A stretch of 62,240 nt of DNA from Eremomyces bilateralis CBS 781.70 (Eukaryota). Both the position numbers and the translations under genes were made by a program. Of this stretch, positions 2,004 through 47,585 are shown piece after piece (within the stretch, counting starts at the first letter, position 1; every line of letters starts with the position of its first letter). The notes beneath the pieces were generated by a model that saw only the letters and a program-made list of their open reading frames with translations, ran no database searches and was not told the DNA's origin. The stretch is taken from NCBI GenBank assembly GCA_010015585.1, contig ML975177.1; one strand, given 5' to 3'.

Positions 2004-2896
2004 TCATACGGCGCTGTGATGACTCTCGCTCATCTCCACCTGGTCCTTGACTTCTCCGACCTCCGCTCCACCCGGATGGACCACTCCACGCCTCGTCGCC
2101 ATCTTCCCAGCCATCCCCCACTTTTCCTCCGTGACCACCAGTCGCACCCAGATCACCAACCACACCAGCCCATATACCACGACCGTCCCGACCAAGATCC
2201 CCACACAATACCCTGCCACGCCCCCGCGACCGACCTCCCCGTCATCCAAAAAGCTATAGACGTAAAACCCTTCGGTGGCGTACGTGATGTACGCGAGCCC
2301 GAGATACAGCGCGAGGAGGACGACTAGCGCGGCTACGTAGACTACCGGGGGCCGCTCGGTGCGGGGGATGAGGATTTCGAGGACGGCGAAGAGGAGGTTC
2401 AGCGCGTGCTGGGTGACGTTGGACCAGGTGTCGAACGGGGTGGAGAAGGTATCGAATAGGACGGCCCAGAAGACGACTGCGATGGGCGTCAGAGGCTTGA
2501 CGGGGGGAGGACACAGGGACACGTACTCGTTACGACGAATGGGAAGGTCGTGATAGTTGTATAGAATATGGCATGAAGATACTGTAGAGCCGTTGGCCAG
2601 CGGGCGAGCAACGGCTTTCCGGCAAACCAGAAGCTCCCCGTATGGAAGGCCGCGAACGCGTAGTAGAACGCGATGCCCCAGAACGTTAGGCTCGTGAAGT
2701 AGCTAAAGGACCGACGCGCCGCCTCGTCCATGCCGTGGGTGCTGCGCCATCCTAGTAGAAAGAATATGGTAACGAAGCAATACAGCGCAATCAGAGCTCG
2801 TAGAAGGAAGAAGTGGAGGGGTGAGAGGAGCCAGGAGGTGTGGAAGCGGTGGGTAGGGTCAAAAGGTGGCTCGGGGAGCCATGGCCAGCGACGCAT
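2004..2896 (-). CDS. FAR-17a/AIG1-like multi-pass membrane protein (2 exons; intron 2477-2526)
   Basis: A GTACGT...CTGAC...CAG intron joins FVVT-I-VFWAVL. About six hydrophobic helices; motifs SFSYFTSLT, QHALN, GFYVYSFLD. Confidence 0.8.
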
Positions 2897-3513
2897 GGTT
2901 GCCCATCGTCTGAGGGAGAACGAGGAGTGGGGAAAAGAAAGAAATCAAGACTCTTGAGTGATAAATCGCAAGAAAGGAACGCTTCAGACTTAAAGCTGTA
3001 TGCAAGAGAGGGAGCTCAGCTGCCCAAGCCATGGCCGGGCTGAAGCGCAGGAGATGGCGTCGAACAATATGATATTGAATGGGTCAGGGAGACGCCACGA
3101 TTCTTCCGGCAGATCTCCAATTGCATTCCATTAGCTTTCATAGAAGCAAGCTGGAGACATCGTCGCTCCATGATGAGAGATGCCTAATTTCCCCTGGGGC
3201 TATCGCTTCGACACATCAGTAATCATTACATTTATGAATAGTGGAGGAGAGAAGGTTTGGGGAGCGGGAGTTATGGTATCTAAATACCTGCGGTACGGTC
3301 TCTTAGACTGGAAGGGGTATCCATATAGTGGGTCAGGTATCCGACATGCAATATATCATGAACACACTCTTAAATCTTAATGTTGCCGATGCTGATCTTG
3401 TCTCTACTGGGAACAATGTTAACCAAAGAAGTGTATCGAACATTGACCATATCACCATTAAGCCTATCATGGCAATCATATCGTAAATCAGGTACACATA
3501 CAGCTACAAACCC

Positions 3514-4840
3514 CTATAGCTCATCCTTCTTCCGAGCCTGTCCCGCCTGTCCCGCCTGCTCCTGGCCCTCCTGCTGCCCCTGCTTCTCCGCCTGCCCCTC
3601 TGGCGGCTCCTCCATCACCCTCTTCTTCGGATTCCGCGGCTCGTCCGAGTCCTGCAACACCGTCCCGTCCGCCCTCCGAACGGGTTCCGCCTGCACTTGC
3701 GCTCCCGCCTGCCCCCCTTGCTGCTGACGAGATTTCTCCGCCATCTGCCCAACTCGCTGCGACATGGACCCGCGGACGCTCGGATCTTCTGGATCCTTTG
3801 CTCCGTATCCGCCGGCGCCGGCACGCATGAACGGCTGGGGGTCTTGATCCCGACGAAGGTGGGGTAAGCCTTCGGTGGCGCTGGGTTTGACGATGAGGGA
3901 CGAGGAAGGGGAGGAGACCGCGATTGAGCTGCTCTGAGCGGAGCCGAGGATTCCGGATGCGGAGAGGAGGTAGGATGAGAGGCGGAGGAGGAGGAAGAGG
4001 GGTTGGAGACACAGCCAGTAGATGGGGCTCCAGAGGAGACGGCGGAAGACGAGCCAGAGGACCGTTCCGAGGAGGAGGTAGAACGTCGTCTGTAGATACC
4101 AGCTATCCGTCTTCGAGGTCCGTAACAGCGACTTGAGCAGCGTCGACGACGACGACAGCAGGCTGTCCAGGTCCGTATAGTTCTCCGCTAGCCCCCGCAG
4201 GTCCCGGCTCGACTGTTCAAACACTTCCTGTGATGCGCGAGATCTCTCCACCTCCGATTGCATCAACTCCAGCGTCCGTTGCAGGGCGTCGGTGACTTCG
4301 CTTTGGGCGGTCACGCGCGCGTCTTCGTGCGGTTGGCGCTCGTGTCCGCGTCGTGGTCGGTTTGACGTAGGGACGTCCGGTGTGATGGCGAACCGTTGCT
4401 CCCGCTCCTTCTTGCGGGCGATCTCGTCGTTCCGGAGCGCTTGTAGTTGCGCGCGTCGGAACTGGCTGCGCGTGCTGGGAGGGGTTTAGTCCGCTATATG
4501 AGAAGAAGATGGGGTGGTGCGGAGCGTACCTCTTCAGATCTTCCCGTGACCGGGCGACCAATGACTCTAATCGCGCCTTCTCCCTACTGACGGGCGTCTC
4601 CCGACTATGCGGTCCTTCTCTTACTGCACCGGGCAAGTCTTCGACGTCTTGGCCGACTAAGTCGAGGTGTTCCTCGTTGCGCTTCAGACGATCGACGATG
4701 TCAGGACGTAGGGCGGTGCGGGGCTGCGGACCTAGTTTGTTCAGGCGATGGACGAGGTGGAGGGTCTCTTTGTTGCTGTCGATCAAGGTCTGGAGGCGGG
4801 CGTCGAGGTTGGTGCAGATGGCTTGCCAGGTGGAGAGCAT
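3514..4840 (-). CDS. SEC20: ER SNARE Sec20 homologue (2 exons; intron 4475-4529)
   Basis: Sec20-like coiled coil SEVTDALQRTLELMQSEVERS...LLSSSSTLLKSLLRTSKTDSW, then a TM helix and RRL. The GTACGC...CAG intron restores the frame (KSTRSQFRRAQLQA). C-terminus ends KKDEL, an ER-retrieval-type signal like the yeast Sec20 HDEL. Confidence 0.9.
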
Positions 4841-20850: not shown

Positions 20851-23800
20851 TTAATCGTAATATTCATATGCGCCTTGATGTTGCTGCTGATGGTGCTGTT
20901 GCTGCATCGGCCACGTTCCAGCGCCGGTGGTCGTGGCGGATTGCTGCGACCACGCCGACGCCTGGCCTTTGAGCCGGCGTTCCTGCTCAAAGTCGCCCCA
21001 TCGCTTCATTGTGATCTTGCTGCTGTCGAACTCGCCCTCGTATTCGATGCCGGCCTTCTTGGTCTTCTCGCCGGCCGTCTTCCGCGTCTCGCCCCAGCTG
21101 AAGTCGTCGAATTTCCAGTAGGCGTACGTTGGGAGCACGAAGTTCCAGATAGGGAGGGAGATCAGGTAAGCAAGCATGTAGAGGACGTACGAAACGCGGC
21201 TCGCGGTCAACACGATCAAAAAGCCCGGAAGACCCAGGATGAGCGCGAGTAGGATGAGGGGGATTAAGGGGGCTTCGGTGTGGGTAATGCCGGCCTTGAT
21301 CGTGATTGCAACTAGTCGCTTCGTCAGCAGCGTTCGGTCAAACATCATTGGATTACCGAACAGGGGACTTACTTAGATAGATGGTGAAGGAGATGGCGGC
21401 GGGTAGCACCAAGGTCCCGACCAATTCGATGAACACGACGAACTGCATGCTGAAACAGAAGGTTCCACAAAGATCCCGCACCAAAACCAGCTCCATCAAG
21501 TTGTGCACCGTGCTGTTGATCCATCGTCGACGTTGCGAGAGCAGCACCTTGAACTGCTCGGGGACCGTGGTCTTGCAGACCGCCTGAGGGATGAATACCT
21601 GCTTTCGCTTGGGGAACGTCTTCAGCATCAGGGTCGAGAGGTATCGGTCCTCGCCGAGCAGCAACAGATTCTTCTTGTGGAGGGTGTCGACGACGTTTTC
21701 GGAGTAGTGCTCGACGACGTCCGGGTTGGCTAGGATGGGCACCCAGTAGTTCTGACCGCCTTTCGGGGCTTTGATTCGATACATGCAGAAGCAGCCGGGA
21801 AGACAGGTGACGCCGCCGAACACGGACTCGAACGACTTGGACAAGTGATGGGAGATGAAGTACCTAGATCACCGATTAGCGCGAAGGCATCATGCGTGGA
21901 TAATTGGAACTTACTCGAAGACCTGGATGATGGTCACCCATGTATCTCGCTTGTTGGCAATCTTCGTCTCGCCGCAAAGGCCCATAATATGAGGATCCTT
22001 CACCATGGCGGAGATCATGTGCGTCAGACTGTCCGGGAACACGGTGGTATCGGCGTCGACCATGAGCACCACTTCATAGAAGTCCGGGGAAATGCCCGTG
22101 ATCTTCCAGATGCCGTTAAAGATCTCGAACTCCAGCTCCGTCATCCGCTCGTCGAACATGACCTTCTGCAGGAAGCTCATCAGGATGATCTGGCTGTCGC
22201 GCTTGCCTCGGTTGCCCGGTTTGGAATTCGTGGCCTCGTCTTCGGTGCCGGTTTTTACGACCACCAGCATGGGAACGCGTTGTTGCTTCTCCGTCGGGAC
22301 GCGAGAGTCTTGGCCGTAGTTATAGAAGCCGGAGTAGATTTTGGCCATGCTGTGGCGCTTGGTGCCGCTAGCAACAGCCACATACGAATAGGGGAGCACT
22401 TCTTCCCGGGGAATGGTGTTATCCTTCATCATGTCCAGGATGATGTCAGGGGTGGTCTGGGACTCTCCATGACCCTTGATCAGACCGTCGCAGACCACGA
22501 AGATCAATTTGTGACTATTCGGATAGTCCGTGGTGGCGACGGAGTCGAGAGTCGTCCGAATGCTATCAGCTCCCTCGGAGTAGGCAGTGACCAGGCAGAT
22601 CGCGTGAGCAAGAGGATATCCGAACGGTTGCCATTCCGCGGGGGGTTGAGGAACTACGGCTTCGTGAATAAAACCGGCCGGGCCAGGGCCTTCGGACTCG
22701 CCAATGATGCTGTTGTATTTGCCGTCGCCCGTGCCCGACCAAAGAAGGCTCGCCCGGCTCTCCTGGGACATAGGCTTGGACTGAGAGTCGTAATACGCCG
22801 TCGGCAGCGTCCCTTGACTTTGGTTGCCCTGTCTGTACATGCTCCCTCTTGCGCCGGAGCCTTGTGTTTGACTGGTCATAGTGGTTGGAGGGGCTTTGGT
22901 TTTGGCAAGGGAACGCTCGATGGCATAGGGGCTCGTGAAACGCGACGTCGTGGGGAATAAGGTGCTGCCGCGCTTGCTGGTTCGGTCGAGAGCCGCCTCA
23001 GGGCGGGGGGGAGCACGATATATATCCTCGCTCCAGTCCTCGATCTGCTGCTTACGCTTCTTGGAATCCGACCCCAGAGACGTCTTCTTTGCGCTATACT
23101 TGTGGCATATGAACCATTGGAAGGCCATCGCAAGCACGAACTTCGCACCCACGATAGAAAGGATGAAGACAAGCAAAACATAGAGCACGACTTTGGAAGC
23201 AATGCACCCGACGGTCTCCGAAGCGACTGTCCCTACCTTGACGATTTGCGTCAAGCATCGAGCGACGTGCTTGTCGCGCTTGGTCATGAACGCTCGAGTG
23301 ACATCGACGCCACGAACGCTGGGGTTCGTTCGAAGCGCATCGAACTCTGGGGGGATATTGACCGCGGTTCGGTTGAACCAGTTAATAAGGTTCAAGTCCA
23401 AGACATCTCCGCTCCACACCATCAGATTCCGGCTGCTGTTCTTGATATCGGACCACTCGAAGTAGACGTCTCCAAAGGCATTCAGGGAGTAGAAGGCATC
23501 CCGTGCCGCATTTGAAGTATGGCACGAGTAGCCGTTGTAGTATGGAACGGTGATGTTCGGCTCGCTCGAACCATCTTGATTGAAGGTCCGACAAGGGAAA
23601 TACCAGCCCATATTTTGTCCGTCTGTAGGGACTCCGGAGTTTGGTTTCGGGGTGATGAGACCCTTGCATGCGCCATTGACGTTCTGAAAGAGAAAACTGC
23701 CGTCCTTCCCGCCGTGCTTCTCGGGGAGATCGAAGAGAACGTTGGCATTATCCGGGACACCTCTAGCTAGCTGATGGTGAGACCGGGATAGGTCGTACGC

Positions 23801-27600: not shown

Positions 27601-28703
27601 CGGAATGCCCAGCTTCGCTGGGAGATTTGCATCGACAGCATGATGTGATGTGATCAACTGATCAGCGACAGCCGACAATGCCTTGGAATGCGGAGTTGCG
27701 AGACCATGTCGTGCTCAGTTAGGACTCAGTTATCCAAAGAATCGGAGTATTAAAGGTACCCAGGATTCAGGAGGCATTATTAATAAATGTTGAGCATTTA
27801 CCCCTTTTCAGGACTTCGGCGGGAATTCAACAAAGGCGAGTCTTTCGCCTTCGAGGTGTACCTGACTTGAATCTGTCCGTATGCTGAATGGGTTCGCGGT
27901 CCGATAGATGGCCGGGAAGTGAGCGCCACATGCACACACCCTTTTAAGGAACTCCTGTTAGTACTAATTACTACCAAGAGGTGAAGATGAATACAGAAGG
28001 AAAATTGAACCAAGTCTCGAATCTGTCAATGGCTTCCGGTCGTCCAGCTACCAGGGTGCTTCGCATGAACTCGCTATTAGCCGGCTTCACAAGAACAATA
28101 CTAACCTGCCGATACCATGCACTACATGCAGCAGTTCCGGTGAGCCCTTTTAATAATCCCACTCTCTAATGTTCCTTCAGAGTATAATGATGTGATGACC
28201 TACCAGTATTGTCGCATTGACGTGCTCTCTTAACCAGTACGGCTGTATGGTGCGAGAGGAGGGGGGCAAAAACCGGGGAGGGGTAGCCTCTAGTGCACCG
28301 AGGAGCAAGCGAGGGCCTACTGTAGCTAGGGACTTAGGGAGTAGGGCTGGTCCGGGGTGCCCCGTATAGGCGGTCTACGACGGCCTGGACGACCTGCGCC
28401 CTGCCTGAGCAGCGAGCACCCCCAAGGCCCCAACTGAACCAATCCAGCAAATTCTCTCCACCTTGTCCCGCTCCGCTACGTTTTATTACTCCGCGGCTTG
28501 CGCTCACAATAACGGAATGATACAGGTTACAAATTAGCAGACCTTCCAGTTCCACCATCGTGAACAATACCTCCCGGTCATTAATAATACCTGTGCCTCC
28601 CGTACCAACCACGGAATCACGCGCAAAATACCCACCACTGTAAGGCGCCTTCCTCTCCTTGGACACCACTGCAGTTCCTCTGAATCTCTCTGCCTCCCCC
28701 CTC

Positions 28704-34303: not shown

Positions 34304-36596
34304 GGTCAGGAGATGGCTTGGGGTGAGAATATCTCCAGGGTATTAACAATGCCTCATATACCTTGTGTAAGGCTGTAAGCACGAGAGAAGACGAGACCTG
34401 CGAAGGCGTTCTTGGTGCACCTCACAACCCAGGACTCGTTGCGGTGATGGAGGTTGAGAGTGGTTCGACGCTTGTCCGAATTCGGTGCTGGTGATCCCAA
34501 TTAACAAAGTACAAGGCAATTGAGCGCTAATATCTGGCCGATTATCGTTTTCTGGACGTATTACGGTACCTGTAGATACTAGATATGAGGTGTGATAGTC
34601 CAACACGTCCTGCACATCTCACGGACCGCGGACATTGTGGAAGTTCGTCCAAGTGGCCACAATATCGACCGGCTAATGGAGCTACGTCATTGGCGAGTCG
34701 TACCACAGTACCACTGCCCTGCTCATGCACCAGCCACACTTAGTCAACACCGTGCCACAGTTGGAGCGCTCCCTCTCGAACCGGAAAGGAAGGCAGCAGC
34801 AGAGCCCTCACAAGTCACACAAGTCACAACTCACAATGGAACACGCTCCTCCCAACTCTCACTCACTTGTTATTACAATTTATAGTGCCTTCTTAGACTC
34901 TCTTAGACTCGCACACTTCTCGCAATTCTCGTCTCTACTAGCGCTCCTTACAGAACGTAGTGTTCTACCCGGGGGCAAAGAAAACCCGATTTCTAGCCGC
35001 CAAAGAAGACGAGAAGAAGACACTGCTGTACACCATGGGGTACTTGTCTCAGATACAATGAGCGCTGTTGTAGGCGCATACAGGGCAAGATCACCTTTAT
35101 TGACGTTACCGGCATCCGCAGGGAAGGTGGCACAGGTTGTACGCGCCCAATATCAATTCGGACTCAATCCGGTCCCACCAGCTAGGCATTTCCCATCCGG
35201 TAGACCCACAATCAGTCCGAGTCCATGTTGATTGTATTGCGATTCGGATTGGCGATCTCCTGTCAGAAACGTCATCGTCGGTCAAAGTCGACCTCGCATC
35301 GCCAGTCTTGAGCGTCCTGTCGGGCCCATGTGGGAGGGCGCTGGAACAATGGAACATACGTCAAACAGGGAACCAGGCTATTATAAGCCCTATGCGAACT
35401 CGCAAACGATCGAGAAACATTCATCACGTCACCTCATTGCTCCTTGAAGAGGAATTGGTGGTTTTTATGGTCGCATTCGAGGCTCAAACACGAGCAGTTG
35501 GACGATGCGCGTCGACGTAGTGGAAGGGGTCCTCTAGATGGTTCAAACCGAAGATCCAGATTCCAATAGTGAGCCTCAACCTTCAACTTCGAGGACGCAT
35601 GAATACCCGGGAATAATACTGGGATTCTCGTGCAGCCAACATCTTGGAGTTGCGCATTCGAGTAATGAGGTTGGTAAGGAAAAGTTTGTTGTTGGTTTAT
35701 TGGCTGGTCTCCAACAGCGTTAAGCGCTTGGGTCAGCGGCTACTTGCTGGAGCTGCTGGGCTCGATCCAATCGCTTTCAACCTCCCTCCTCCGTTTCCCG
35801 CATTTCCAACCTCCTTGAGTCCTTGCTATCCAATCCTTTCTTGTTCTCTTACATTTCCTTTCCAAACTTCTAATATGGCGCAATGTGTGCCCTGCCGTTG
35901 GAGTATGTTGCTCCCACATAGCCAATCGTATCGCTGTCCCATGAGAACCCCACACTTCCATTCCTCGTGATGGATGCTGTGCACCCAGATCAACCACAGA
36001 GGTCCATTATGGTCTTTCGCCCTGTACACAGGTCCCCAGTTCGGGCCAACTCGACTTGCTCCTTCTGCAAACCTATTCGTTGGCCCTCTTCGCGACCAGC
36101 GTCTACTCGATGCAGTTGAGGATCTCTGCCTGAGTCGGGGCCGACGCGCTGTGCCCTGCTAGTCAACTCAGCCTGGTTCGATTCGATATGCTCCCGGTGG
36201 CGCATTGAGGCGATGGTGAATCTTCGTGGGCGCCTATAGTTGCTTCTCGCCAGATTGTGGCCATGGCCGGCAGTTTGGCCGGTTATATGCTGCCTGTGCC
36301 CCAATCCGCAAGGCGAGAGTTGTAGGTTTTCCATTTCTGGTCCGTTACTGGGAGGCGTATTCGTCCCTTACTATTTCCTGCCCTTTCGTTTTGCTCAGGC
36401 TTCGTTGATCGAAAGTCCGTTCTACATTCACTTAGACCAAAAAGTCTTACAATCCGTTGATCGGTATTTGCACACATATTGTAATCATTGTTTATTGAAA
36501 CCACGCATTGACTGCGAACATTCCCATTATTTATACGCCCTCAGGAGGGTATGTTTTATATACCCTGAAAGAGTGACGCTTTGGATATCCATCGGT

Positions 36597-44247: not shown

Positions 44248-44746
44248 GTTTCAATCTTATGCCAGTCTATGGCAGACCAGAACCGTGGGTATTCCGTAGG
44301 TAGCCTGTAGTGTCCCGTATACAATGAAGGGATGGAAGTGGAAATGGAAATGGAAATGCACACTGTGCTCATGTGAGTTGTTGATTTTCCTATATCTGAT
44401 ACGATGGTACAATGTATTCGATATTGCCCTCCCCTTAGTCTGTTTTGTAGAGTCGCAGAGTTGCAGCAGAGGAGTGATGTTCATCGATATAACCATATTG
44501 GGTTTAGCGCTAGTTGCTCTCTTCAGCACCACAATAATCTCGCAACTCCAGTCGACATCAGAAGAAATTACCTTACTCTTCACACATGCTGACAATTTGC
44601 TTGGCTAGACCCCTCATCTACGGTACGGTATACAGTACCTACTACCGGAATAGTACTGATTGTATCAAGTGCTCTAGAAATTAGAATGCCAACATGAAGC
44701 AACTGCTTTGGGGTTCCAGCTCGAGACACCGACCTTCTCCGTCGAC

Positions 44747-46288
44747 ATGACCAGTATCGCACTGTTCGCCGAATACTTGCTTCGCATCCGCACCCTGAGC
44801 CTCTACATTTCCCTCGCGACGTCGCACACGGAGGAGACGAAGGCAACATTGTCCGCCGACCGAGAGCATGTCACCGTCACGCACGAAGGCGAGAGCGCCA
44901 CCATCCGACTACCCACCAGGATCCGCGGGGGTGGTGAAGCTGCTCTAACCCTACCCGATGTGAGGGAGCAGGGACTCGGGAGCAAAGAACTAACCCTAAG
45001 GCTTGCACTGGAAGAGAGAGAAGGCGAGGAAGGACAGCTTATACCTCGAGGGGATGGGGACGCAGAGAACGTGGTGCCGTGGGATGCACAGTCCCTGGCA
45101 AATGTGAAGGCGATCGCGTGCAAGGGCTGCGGGAACCCCTTGCTTCAAGGAACTTCCATAACGTCCCCGTCTTCAAAAGATGGCCTGAATGACTGGAACG
45201 ATCTGCCGAGTGAAAACTGGGCGGAGATGATGGACTTCTGGCACTGTCACAAACCCGACCCCGATCATGGAGTCGGCAATGCCGGATCGACGAAAGGCTA
45301 CGCTGCTGCGAACAAGGTCAGAGCCCAGAAAAGCGTAGGTCTGGTAGGCCTTGGACATTTGCTATTTCATGGACCGGATTGTCGAGGGGTAAGGGTAGGT
45401 CTTTCTCTTCCTTTCTTTCTTCTTCTCTCTCTTTTCTCTTCGGCTTTCTTCGAACGTTCGATCGCATATCGATGTTTAATTCGGGTGGCAAAGAAGGAGG
45501 CTGTGTCCTTCTCAGTGACTTGATCTTCGATACAACCACCCAAGATCGATAGTAGCACCGTCATTCCTTGTTAACCCTTGCGGTTGCCTCGGACCAACGA
45601 CTACGTCTCCTACTCAGACGGCGTTTTCAAGAGAGTCATTGGGACGTCCGCGTACACTGCGAGATACATTTAGGCTTACGGACACTGTAGATAGATGAAC
45701 AAGGAAACAATCAACACTTGCTCTGCGAATCGTGTAGGAGCCCCCTTGGAGTCGTTGATGAAATGGCCGAAGGCTTCAAGATATTCAAATGGGCAGTCTC
45801 AGTTTCGTCCCCAAATTTAACCGCACCGTTCTTTAAGACTCAGAAATGGGCGGCAGCCACACTGCTTCATGAGGTTGAAACAACGGGCGTGCGAAAGTAC
45901 ATAGTCAAGGAAGAGGATTCCAGTGCCGGGCAAGAAAGACTTCTGGTGAGCCCAGCAATGCCGATGCAATGCTATGTGGAAGCTAATCCCGCTTTAGGTT
46001 TGGATATTCACCCCCGACCTCTACTTCTCCAGCAGCGTTTCCAGCACGCACCGGTCTGACCCAACTCGCGCCATGAAGGTTTTGTGGCAACCACTTCGCA
46101 GGGACGCATACCATGCCCCGGAATATAAATCCACCGAGGAAATGGAGTTACCGACGTCCCTGTACACGACGCTGGAGAGGACTTTGAAGGGGAGCGTCCA
46201 GTTGCTTCCGCGGTCCGCACGCGACTCCGCACCAGCTGGATGGAGCCTGGGGATGGTGGAACGGTTCAAACATAGCGACATATCGTGA
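44747..46288 (+). CDS. HECT-like ubiquitin-conjugating enzyme E2-binding protein (HECT_2; IPA1/UBE3D-like); introns ~45395-45690 and 45946-45997
   Basis: Signature LPSENWAEMMDFWHCHKP, CxxC pairs (CKGC, CESC), LVWIFTPD and AMKVLWQ. The intron 1 donor could be 45389 or 45395 (both phase 0). Confidence 0.9.
45483..45671 (+). ncRNA. snR81: Intron-encoded box H/ACA guide RNA, snR81-like (predicted U2 snRNA pseudouridylation guide)
   Basis: Hairpin 1 has basal stem GGGTGG/CCACCC and upper stem GGAGG/TCTTC, flanking pocket AAAGAA...GATAC, which is complementary to U2 GUAUC-UG-UUCUUU. A degenerate H box AGATCG starts 14 nt after the pocket. Hairpin 2 basal stem CTTGCGGT/ACTGCGAG is followed by ACA-TTT just upstream of the branch point. 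Confidence 0.75.
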
Positions 46289-47585
46289 ACGGCATGCTGT
46301 CCGCTCGCCATTCGAAGAAGGTACTCGGGACAGGAACATTCACAATTCGTGCGGGAGCTAGATCATATATCCACAGGCACTACTCCCGCCAATATAGCAT
46401 GGAACCATCCGAATGAACTTCGCACCGCAAATGGGAGCTCGGGAGTGAGATAGGTGTGCGAAGAAGCGAAAGTCAGCAACATGAAGCAGTCGGCGGTCAC
46501 GCTGGCTGGCGATATCGATCCGGGTTCGGCTACATGACCCAACGGAGACAGAAAAGGGTCCCGCATTGTTTTTCATCGGATGTAAGATTCCTGTCAGCAG
46601 GCCAGCCCATCATCGAAGCGGAATTGCCCTCCATCCGGGCCATATTTAAGCATTTAAAAATTGAAATTGAACATGAATACCTCCACATTTCACACCGTAG
46701 TCACTAGAAGTATTCAAAGTTTCCAACCAACCCGAAGGATCCAATCCGAGTCACCCTCGGTCTTGGCACCAATGCTTCGGTTTCTTCTTGATCAAACTCT
46801 CTCGAAGTGATGACGCGGCCCGGCTCAGAGCCTAGGGTTACTGTAGAGATAGTGGATCCGGGGCCAACGGATTGCCTGTTGTGGCGCATGTGAGGGCCGA
46901 GTAGACATACCACAGTAGTACGCAGCACTGGACCTGTAGGAATAATATGGAGTTCGGATTTGCGGAATACCTGCCAATTTTACCTGACATGTAGATCTGC
47001 CATGGACGGAGTTTCATTATAGACATTCGCAAGGCTGTGGCTGAGCCACTTTGAAGTCCGAACCACTCCAATCGCCCATCTAAGATCGTCACAGATGTCA
47101 CACACTGACACACATCTGATGAAGAAGCGCTTCTAAGCCATCTCTGCCAGCTCATGTTGTTCGTGCTGAACTCTTGTAGTAATCGTGTGTGCTACTGTGA
47201 ATGATGAGTGTGGTGCTGACCCCACTTCTATTCTTAATACGTCCATTTTGGCGCCAGTAGCTCCCAAGTCCCAGTTCGTCCAAGTCCACTATGAACGTCT
47301 TCATCTCCATAACCCCATGATCCATTGCTTCCGCGACCCGTTATTAACTTCGCCGCTCGCCTTTCCTCTCCTCTCCTCTCCTTCCCTTTCTTTTCCTTCC
47401 TTCACTACCATTGAATTCCTTTGAATCGGTACTCTGACGTACCAAATCTCGATCGGACCTCATACGCATCTCAAGCAGCCTCCGCCACGATAACTGATCA
47501 ATTCCCACATACCAATCCGGAGGCAGGGATCACATCTATCAACCTCAGAAAGCTCTCCATACGGTAGCTTAGCCTACATCACAAT

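Follow-up and report, generated by a model that had tools for sequence, protein, structure and literature searches.

In S. cerevisiae, the box H/ACA RNA snR81 guides U2 Psi42 with its 5' pocket and 25S Psi1051 with its 3' pocket (PMC6049503), and PMC5824354 reports the snR81 family as confined to the genus Saccharomyces. The equivalent U2 position in animals (human Psi41) also has H/ACA guides, namely vertebrate SCARNA4 (ACA26), Xenopus SCARNA15, and Drosophila scaRNA:PsiU2-38.40.42, and yeast cells deleted for snr81 regain Psi42 when supplied with SCARNA4 (PMC5733568). In S. pombe, pugU2-43/44 is a box H/ACA RNA located downstream of RPC10; it was discovered via a pocket-strand search, and northern blot, RACE, and S. 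cerevisiae expression experiments then confirmed it (PMC5473140). The literature searched names only two fungal U2 guides, snR81 of S. cerevisiae and this RNA of S. pombe, although the Pezizomycotina family tables of PMC5824354 may include a family to which the candidate belongs. Among filamentous ascomycetes, Neurospora crassa has 20 described H/ACA RNAs (Nc ACA1-20), almost all of them longer than 160 nt and 2 of them intron-encoded (PMC2780460).

Here, we describe a candidate of this class in the window, i.e., the whole 62,240-nt stretch of Eremomyces bilateralis CBS 781.70 DNA that was analysed. We consider it reasonably probable that the 296-nt intron of a HECT_2 gene encodes a ~189-nt box H/ACA guide RNA (45483-45671) whose 5' pocket is aimed at U2. 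Such a guide would probably be a functional analogue, rather than a shown homologue, of snR81 and SCARNA4. Like snR81, the candidate is a two-hairpin H/ACA RNA; however, its 5' pocket offers 5 + 6 pairs as opposed to 7 + 7 in yeast, its 3' pocket has 5 + 5 nt where that of snR81 forms 9 + 3 pairs with 25S (PMC6049503), and it is intron-encoded with a non-canonical H box. The animal guides differ in being Cajal-body RNAs whose other pockets aim at further U2 positions, and pugU2-43/44 differs in that it is non-intronic and targets the neighbouring uridines 43/44 through its 3' pocket (PMC5473140).

The N. crassa RNAs are comparable in their general make-up. In Additional file 2 of PMC2780460, we counted ACAUUU as the end of 10 of the 20 cloned H/ACA RNAs, which is also the predicted end of the candidate. 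By our own reading of the same source, the two hairpins of N. crassa ACA5 are separated by CAGAUUGA alone, apparently the same AGAUYG type of box (AGAUUG). In contrast to the candidate, 0 of the 20 are predicted to be snRNA-directed (PMC2780460), and an AAAGAA...GAUAC pocket was found by eye in none of the 20 in Additional file 2.

Host gene and borders of the intron

A Pfam profile search identified the host as a HECT_2 gene (PF09814) of the Ascomycota type, with profile positions 285-364 falling in exon 3 and the earlier positions distributed over exons 1 and 2 (Table 1). The candidate lies on the sense strand of the intron, between exons that both match the HECT_2 profile. At 296 nt, the intron is long compared to the two other introns of the gene (47 and 52 nt). 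It is the first coding intron, and a 5'-UTR intron (44623-44669) lies upstream of it. Two in-frame donors are present, GTAGGT at 45395 and GTAAGG at 45389. Contig breaks of sequencing run X3 fall at 45394 and 45690, where the contigs overlap by 30 nt as they would at a splice branch in an assembly graph; GTAGGT is therefore most likely the donor in use and the intron most likely extends over 45395-45690.

Three of the five sequencing runs contained the stretch, and run X5 contributed no aligned contig. The RNA label of X3 is a guess; we took the run to be RNA-like on the grounds that two introns are skipped in it, one by a contig that joins across intron 2 (45945/45998, GT..AG) and one by a contig that leaves the window at the 5'-UTR intron. 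Intron sequence was observed directly in this run, in a 355-nt contig (45365-45719) that covers the whole 296-nt intron together with both exon borders. Since this contig spans both borders, it shows unspliced or retained intron and not a trimmed 189-nt RNA. The spliced joint of exon 1 and exon 2 was absent among the X3 contigs listed.

H/ACA layout of the intron

We ran a target-blind enumerator over the whole intron. It demanded 5 bp or more in the lower stem and 4 bp or more in the upper stem, pockets that stay open, an ANA-type H box, an ACA, and a distance of 13-16 nt from box to pocket top. Its best layout (-42.0 kcal/mol) was identical to that of the original prediction, which had placed a hairpin-hinge-hairpin-ACA arrangement inside the ~300-nt first intron of the HECT_2 gene, with a second pocket of UGCCU and CGUAC; the enumeration thus recovered the same arrangement, and the second pocket was found where it had been put. 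The layout can be read directly from the DNA letters, and the ends of a mature RNA are predicted from it (Table 1). In constrained folding, the canonical structure reached -45.2 kcal/mol versus -50.3 kcal/mol for the free MFE, a gap of 5.1 kcal/mol, and the 5' hairpin alone reached -17.0 versus -17.3 kcal/mol. The described H/ACA rule allows 14-16 nt between the target uridine and the H or ACA box downstream of it (PMC2780460), and both distances of the candidate, 14 nt from the 5' pocket to AGAUCG and 15 nt from the 3' pocket to the ACA, fall within this range. The box AGAUCG fits A-N-A-N-N, although its last base is G and not A as in ANANNA.

Table 1. Features of the host intron, its flanking exons, and the predicted H/ACA RNA (window positions).
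Feature	Position	Strand	Remarks
Exon 1 (coding part)	44747..45394	+	PF09814 profile positions 1-193, E 1.8e-48; X3 contig end at 45394
Host intron	45395..45690	+	296 nt; donor GTAGGT, acceptor AG 45689-90; X3 contig breaks
CT-rich 5' part of intron, outside RNA	45400..45450	+	read from sequence
Predicted mature box H/ACA RNA	45483..45671	+	189 nt; best enumerator layout; organism-B alignment starts at 45479
5' hairpin	45483..45541	+	pocket CAAAGAA/GAUACAA
5' hairpin lower stem, 5' strand GGGUGG	45483..45488	+	6 perfect pairs with 45536-45541
5' pocket, 5' strand CAAAGAA	45489..45495	+	AAAGAA (45490-45495), 6 contiguous Watson-Crick pairs with UUCUUU on the 3' side of the unpaired UG of U2
5' hairpin upper stem and apical part	45496..45528	+	GGAGG 45496-45500 pairs with UCUUC 45524-45528
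5' pocket, 3' strand GAUACAA	45529..45535	+	GAUAC (45529-45533), 5 contiguous Watson-Crick pairs with GUAUC on the 5' side of the target U
5' hairpin lower stem, 3' strand CCACCC	45536..45541	+	fold and enumerator
H-like box AGAUCG	45543..45548	+	14 nt from pocket top; non-canonical last base
Rest of long hinge	45549..45576	+	whole hinge 35 nt
3' hairpin	45577..45663	+	lower stem 45577-84/45656-63 (8 bp), upper stem 45590-45650
3' pocket	UGCCU 45585-89, CGUAC 45651-55	+	-25.0 kcal/mol for 3' hairpin with pocket open
ACA box	45666..45668	+	15 nt from top of 3' pocket; position read from DNA letters, RNA end predicted
Tail UUU	45669..45671	+	predicted 3' end at 45671
Candidate branch site CTTAC	45674..45678	+	12 nt before acceptor; inferred from sequence alone
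Exon 2	45691..45945	+	HECT_2 profile positions 202-278, E 2.6e-15

Other assignments of the parts were considered and rejected. An ACA at 45654, with a lower stem of 45579-83/45648-52, reached only -9.2/-10.4 kcal/mol compared to -25.0 kcal/mol, with the two pocket strands base-pairing to one another. The sole canonical ANANNA in the hinge, ATAGTA at 45549, is 20 nt away from the pocket; in the relative described below as organism B, it is disrupted by a replacement of T45550 with C and a deletion of position 45551. ATACAA at 45530, as an H box, would fall inside the best-ranked 5' hairpin (pocket strand 45529-35 and lower stem 45536-41). A C/D-box snoRNA was discarded after neither a C nor a D motif was found in the intron, and a coding reading of the open frame 45519-45698 was discarded on account of three single-base indels and an absence of codon periodicity in organism B.

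Controls were performed on the motif, the layout, and the fold. Dinucleotide shuffles reached -42.0 kcal/mol in 3 of 300 cases for the whole intron and in 2 of 300 for its last 221 nt, while 229 and 238 of the 300 shuffles, respectively, contained no layout at all. With natural sequence and the same relaxed criterion, 1240 windows of 296 nt yielded 291 distinct layouts, of which 39 were at -42 kcal/mol or better, namely this locus and 38 other places in the window. The bipartite motif AAAGAA-N25-55-GATAC occurs twice in the window (0.77 expected). The free MFE fold is unremarkable (z = 0.10), with 113 of 200 shuffles folding at least as well. By themselves, the motif and the layout could each have arisen by chance; it is the combination of layout with conservation and pocket fit that is clearly beyond it.

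The original prediction had called the RNA snR81-like. This description holds for function only, and homology to snR81 was not detected. At the gathering score, Rfam gave 0 matches over the entire window. At E <= 10, Rfam 15, whose inclusion of an snR81 model is unconfirmed, gave over 45300-45800 a single SIB_RNA match (E 3.9, chance) and none to an H/ACA family, so that the covariance check for snR81 came out negative. A pattern of the conserved core was also run against contigs from metagenomes and genomes, and its hits were judged to be chance: a metagenome locus (L001) was alike over 37 nt only, inside a 796-aa ORF, and two loci in bacterial MAGs (L002 and L003) were alike over 21-23 nt only.

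Conservation in a relative and fit to U2

Conservation was observed directly in one relative, a 72.7-kb DNA contig of organism B that was aligned in three pieces, with differences within ~30 nt of a piece end unlisted. Results showed 26 differences and 3 single-base indels in the 146 nt of the intron segment 45479-45624, i.e., ~82% identity, which is similar to that of the two coding pieces (17 differences in 97 nt and 22 in 132 nt). A manual count places 15 of the 18 listed substitutions in the coding pieces at third codon positions, and codon periodicity is absent from the intron segment. The remaining intron could not be aligned, and on the same organism-B contig 144 unlike letters replace 45325-45478. 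Behind 45624, the loose end of the organism-B consensus finishes with a match to 45641-45656, including one extra C, and stops at 45656, before the ACA box.

The least changed part of the segment is 45524-45548, which comprises the 3' strand of the upper stem, the pocket strand GAUACAA, the 3' strand of the lower stem, and the H-like box. It holds 2 events in 25 positions versus 18 in the 59 other listed positions (Fisher one-sided p = 0.022, for classes defined post hoc), and both changes fit the model: C45536>T preserves a G.U pair if G45488 is unchanged, and C>T at the N position 45547, the only change in the H-like box, makes it AGAUUG. A 14-nt run, 45522-45535, which includes GAUACAA, has zero listed differences; the 3' strand of the upper stem (45524-28) is likewise unchanged, and four changes lie in the apical part. 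Of the 20 listed events, 9 lie in the rest of the hinge (45549-45576), and the 3 single-base indels are all among these. In the 3' hairpin, C45587>A alters the 5' strand of the pocket and G45591>A makes a mismatch in the upper stem. Conservation of the pocket in orthologous introns, one of the points raised in the original prediction, is seen in organism B for GAUACAA; that of AAAGAA is not readable there because this strand lies in the unlisted end zone of an aligned piece.

The 5' pocket forms 11 contiguous Watson-Crick pairs (5 + 6) with the U2 motif around an unpaired UG, as originally proposed. The target used was the fungal U2 motif quoted in that prediction, as distinct from a U2 sequence of this organism; two guide motifs given in the Methods of PMC5473140, ggACAGATACgg and TGAAAA, back this motif. 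Watson-Crick pairs alone were scored for 12,926 H/ACA-type pockets in the window; all those outside the locus had 6 pairs or fewer, 15 of them exactly 6, and the only other entries above 6 belonged to another register of the same locus (7). When G.U pairs were allowed, 9 other pocket entries reached 10 pairs with the U2 site. The minimum pairing found experimentally for yeast snR81 is 8 bp (PMC6049503), which the 5 + 6 pairing exceeds while flanking the unpaired UG. The uridine so exposed would correspond to yeast U2 Psi42 and human Psi41, a site modified by H/ACA RNAs in yeast, frog, human, and fly (PMC6049503, PMC5733568). The 3' pocket, 15 nt from the ACA, has the right geometry and is without an assigned target.

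Alternative readings and a possible pathway

The proposal of a U2-directed intronic H/ACA guide is supported by the layout, the box distances, the conservation in organism B, and the pocket fit. An intronic H/ACA RNA could nevertheless be real and have another target, either an rRNA site or none (an orphan), with the fit to U2 being a coincidence aided by the pyrimidine-rich target. This would accord with the pocket entries that reach 10 pairs when G.U pairs are allowed, with the AAAGAA strand, whose conservation is not visible in organism B, and with N. crassa, where the 20 H/ACA RNAs comprise 6 orphans and 0 predicted snRNA targets (PMC2780460). However, the 11 Watson-Crick pairs of the candidate start on either side right from the top of the pocket, compared to 6 at most in pockets outside the locus, GAUACAA is invariant in organism B, and the site is a known H/ACA target in four organisms. 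We therefore regard another target as unlikely.

Likewise, the intron might carry some other conserved element, such as a splicing or retention structure, a means of HECT_2 autoregulation, or a DNA-level regulator, and give rise to no stable small RNA. The X3 contig over the whole intron and both exon borders is what intron retention gives, and the non-canonical H box, the lack of an Rfam match, the null MFE z-score, and the 38 other layouts in the window point the same way. This reading, which we hold to be quite unlikely, does not account for the 14/15-nt H/ACA geometry, the terminal ACAUUU, or the 11 bp formed with a known H/ACA target, nor does it explain why conservation is concentrated on pocket 3' strands, stems, and box. 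That the resemblance is due to chance, in a long, functionless, slowly diverging intron, seems highly improbable to us. Motif and layout can each be reached by chance on their own, but the segment is ~82% identical while the adjoining 154 nt are replaced by 144 unlike letters on the same contig, and chance would also have to bring together the layout, its conservation, and the target fit.

If the 296-nt intron does encode a U2 guide, the H/ACA RNA would be transcribed within the host pre-mRNA and bound by Cbf5, Nhp2, Nop10, and Gar1. Splicing and debranching, followed by exonuclease trimming to the edges of the particle, would then release a stable RNA, and its 5' pocket could direct pseudouridylation of U2 at the Psi42 equivalent. 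A further-reaching version, in which a lineage-specific U2 guide arose independently of snR81 and the animal scaRNAs, its second pocket serves a site so far not known to carry a pseudouridine, and its output is gated by splicing versus retention of the host intron, appears very doubtful. In a filamentous ascomycete, a guide of the U2 Psi42 type, if true, would fill a gap and show RNA guidance of the site beyond budding yeast. It would be an addition to a well-understood class, with no new mechanism, and would offer a simple test case in which a single intron is removed or transplanted and a single pseudouridine is read.

Two side observations were made on the sequencing runs. In run X4, 44842-45192 is uncovered, with a contig joining across it through 348 unlike letters, and 45657-46350 is also uncovered. 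In X3, contig depths were 766.9 and 434.3 for the exon contigs and 282.6 for the intron contig; each depth is a single figure per contig, and the parts of the gene were not ranked by it.

The host gene and its introns

The window is eukaryotic, and the element lies in an intron, between exons 1 and 2 of an Ipa1/UBE3D-type HECT_2 (PF09814) gene whose closest ESM Atlas protein clusters are HECT_2 families, Ascomycota being their commonest phylum. Two intron donor candidates, both in frame, stand 6 nt apart (GTAAGG at 45389 and GTAGGT at 45395). Contigs of X3, a sequencing run, end at 45394 and 45690 with 30-nt overlaps. Since these breaks resemble an assembly graph in which spliced and unspliced forms diverge, the host intron is most likely 45395-45690 (296 nt), and the breaks fit the GTAGGT donor; the donor at 45389, if used, would take out two codons, Val-Arg. 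This intron is about six times as long as the others of the gene (52 and 47 nt). The original prediction of a ~300-nt first intron was thus correct in size, and correct in order for the coding introns but not overall, since a 5'-UTR intron lies upstream. A CT-rich tract of ~50 nt (45400-45450) occupies the 5' part of the intron, before the conserved block, and reads seem to be cut at 45400-45432.

The RNA label of X3 is a guess, though contigs of this run pass over both intron 2 and the 5'-UTR intron. Another X3 contig, 355 nt long (45365-45719), spans all of the 45395-45690 intron plus both exon borders, so sequence of this intron does persist in RNA. This fits a trimmed small RNA and an unspliced or retained intron alike, the contig depths being unusable to tell them apart.

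Features of the host gene, the aligned pieces and the predicted RNA
Feature	Coordinates	Description	Source
5'-UTR intron	44623-44669	47 nt, GT..AG	X3 contig exits window at 44669, loose end = 44592-44621
Exon 1	44747-45394 (+)	HECT_2 profile positions 1-193	
Exon 2	45691-45945 (+)	HECT_2 profile positions 202-278	
Intron 2	45946-45997	52 nt, GT..AG	One X3 contig joins across
Exon 3	45998-46285 (+)	HECT_2 profile positions 285-364	
Coding piece	44745-44841	17 differences in 97 nt	X4 contig
Coding piece	45193-45324	22 differences in 132 nt	X4 contig
Intron segment	45479-45624	26 differences and 3 single-base indels in 146 nt	X4 contig
5' hairpin	45483-45541	6-bp lower stem; pocket CAAAGAA / GAUACAA; upper stem 45496-45528	Enumerator
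H-like box AGAUCG	45543	14 nt from 5' pocket top	Enumerator
3' hairpin	45577-45663	8-bp lower stem; pocket UGCCU / CGUAC	Enumerator
ACA box	45666	15 nt from 3' pocket top; tail UUU	Enumerator

The H/ACA layout and its chance level

Rfam matched no family in the whole window at the gathering score; no H/ACA family matched at E <= 10 in 45300-45800, and the free MFE fold of 45483-45671 had a z-score of 0.10. Since these ordinary tools do not flag the region, we wrote an enumerator that applies H/ACA rules only, with no target, and takes its energy from a constrained fold. Qualifying layouts have an ANA... box (H) and, at the 3' end, an ACA, with 0-4 nt of gap and 13-16 nt between pocket top and box; their lower stems contain 5 bp or more and their upper stems 4 bp or more, and the pocket is open (3-12 and 3-10 nt). 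Across the whole intron, its top solution was the hairpin-hinge-hairpin-ACA layout originally proposed, and the sequence words named in that proposal are in place. The H/ACA form of the 5' hairpin folds at -17.0 kcal/mol vs. -17.3 for the free fold, and the whole canonical structure at -45.2 vs. -50.3 kcal/mol. An alternative with ACA at 45654 was rejected, its fold being much weaker than that of the ACA-45666 model.

Dinucleotide shuffles reached -42.0 in 3 of 300 cases for the whole intron and 2 of 300 for its last 221 nt, while 229 and 238 of the 300, respectively, held no layout at all; the layout modestly exceeds chance by this measure. Its excess over natural sequence is weaker: when both strands were scanned in 1240 windows of 296 nt, a layout turned up in 318 (291 distinct), and 39 of the 291 stood at -42 or better, the element's own included. 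The bipartite motif AAAGAA-N25-55-GATAC occurs twice in the window vs. 0.77 expected. Therefore, layout alone or motif alone proves little. The 38 other layouts of the window for which the relaxed enumerator gives -42 kcal/mol or lower (down to -58.3; e.g., 28318-28533 (-), 44760-44960 (-) and 21554-21786 (+)) are probably, for the most part, false positives of a loose criterion.

Conservation in a relative and Neurospora precedents

A DNA run (X4) from a relative, organism B, which is <90% alike, contains a single contig, 72.7 kb long, with three aligned pieces. Between the 45193-45324 and 45479-45624 pieces, this contig has 144 unlike letters vs. the window's 154, and its loose end past 45624 closes with a match to 45641-45656, with one extra C. 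Since the aligned piece begins at 45479, the conserved block begins 4 nt ahead of the proposed RNA start. By hand count, third codon positions take 15 of the 18 substitutions listed in the coding pieces; the intron block has no codon periodicity and three frame-breaking indels, which argues that it is conserved as a non-coding element despite an open frame there.

Within the block, differences are listed for 45510-45593 only, and the unlisted ends of the pieces (~30 nt) contain the strand with AAAGAA, the 5' hairpin's 5' strands and the greater part of the upper stem in the 3' hairpin. Two listed events fall in the 25 positions of 45524-45548 (upper-stem 3' strand, GAUACAA, lower-stem 3' strand and AGAUCG) vs. 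18 in the other 59 (Fisher one-sided p = 0.022, with classes set after the fact). Of these two, one replaces a G-C pair with G.U and the second lies at an N position of the box; most listed changes are in the apical part and hinge. Conservation of the pocket, the lack of which in orthologous introns would have counted against the original prediction, was found in organism B for the GAUACAA strand; the 3' pocket has correct geometry and is conserved less well (pocket base C45587>A; upper-stem mismatch G45591>A). Scans of metagenome and genome contig collections gave only chance matches, so organism B is the sole relative compared. One such match, on a marine metagenome scaffold (L001), was discarded as a homologue; the scaffold has a 796-aa open frame at 2091-4481 (-).

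A chance resemblance would agree with how little layout and motif each prove alone, but 45479-45624 aligns in organism B while the adjoining sequence there is unlike, and we consider chance very improbable. The non-coding conservation might also mark an intronic element of another kind, which seems unlikely; an intron-encoded box H/ACA RNA, whatever its target, is the quite probable reading.

The H-like box of this predicted RNA, AGAUCG, is at the right distance but has G as its final base (AGAUUG in organism B). The sole canonical ANANNA in the hinge, ATAGTA (45549), was rejected, being 20 nt from the pocket and broken in organism B. Among the 20 cloned Neurospora crassa H/ACA RNAs (Additional file 2, PMC2780460; box drawings not visible in the PDF), the two hairpins of ACA5 are separated, by our reading, by nothing but CAGAUUGA, and the terminal ACAUUU of the element recurs, by our count, at the end of 10. 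In the portion of that report available, almost all exceed 160 nt, two of 20 are intronic and none of 20 is predicted to target an snRNA (PMC2780460). The palindrome ATCGAT occurs on either side of the 5' hairpin (45469-45474 and 45545-45550) and could lengthen its basal stem, with an internal loop of 9 x 3 nt in between; organism B has changes in the second copy (C45547>T, T45550>C).

Predicted pairing with U2 and relation to snR81

The 5' pocket pairs with the U2 site as claimed, GAUAC (3' strand) with GUAUC and AAAGAA (5' strand) with UUCUUU; both duplexes begin right at the pocket top, with UG left unpaired. The site scored is the motif quoted in the original prediction rather than one read from E. 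bilateralis U2 itself, and its fungal backing comes from the search that identified the S. pombe U2-43/44 guide, which relied on ggACAGATACgg and TGAAAA as pocket motifs (Methods of PMC5473140). The same pocket geometry is described around yeast U42-G43, where snR81 is reported to form 7+7 pairs, a total of 8 being enough (PMC6049503, as available). As a control, every H/ACA-type pocket allowed by the rules in the window (n = 12,926) was scored against the same site. With Watson-Crick pairs only, the element's 5' pocket formed 11 pairs; the sole other entries above 6 were another register of the same locus (7), and the remaining pockets had at most 6, with 15 at exactly 6. When G.U was allowed, the lead narrowed to 11 vs. 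10, with 9 entries at 10.

By this pocket fit, the predicted H/ACA RNA would act as SCARNA4 and the 5' pocket of snR81 do, and we think it somewhat probable that it guides the equivalent of U2 Psi42, a position for which RNA guides are described in yeast (snR81), in vertebrates (SCARNA4, Xenopus SCARNA15) and also in flies (PMC5733568, as available). The label "snR81-like" thus holds for function. Family membership is unsupported, because no covariance model matched and a survey of 147 fungi, in its accessible text, reports snR81 (HACA_26) from the genus Saccharomyces alone (PMC5824354). In the literature available to our search, no U2-directed H/ACA guide from a filamentous fungus was found, and the S. 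pombe guide was presented in 2017 as the first U2 guide identified in that species (PMC5473140, as available); the element would therefore be an addition to the known class of H/ACA guides. The second AAAGAA-N25-55-GATAC match, at 35002-35056 (+), does not figure among those pockets with good pairing to the U2 site. As originally proposed, the guide may also be tied to the part its host gene plays in RNA processing. The U2 guide reading is plausible and testable, and calls for no new mechanism.
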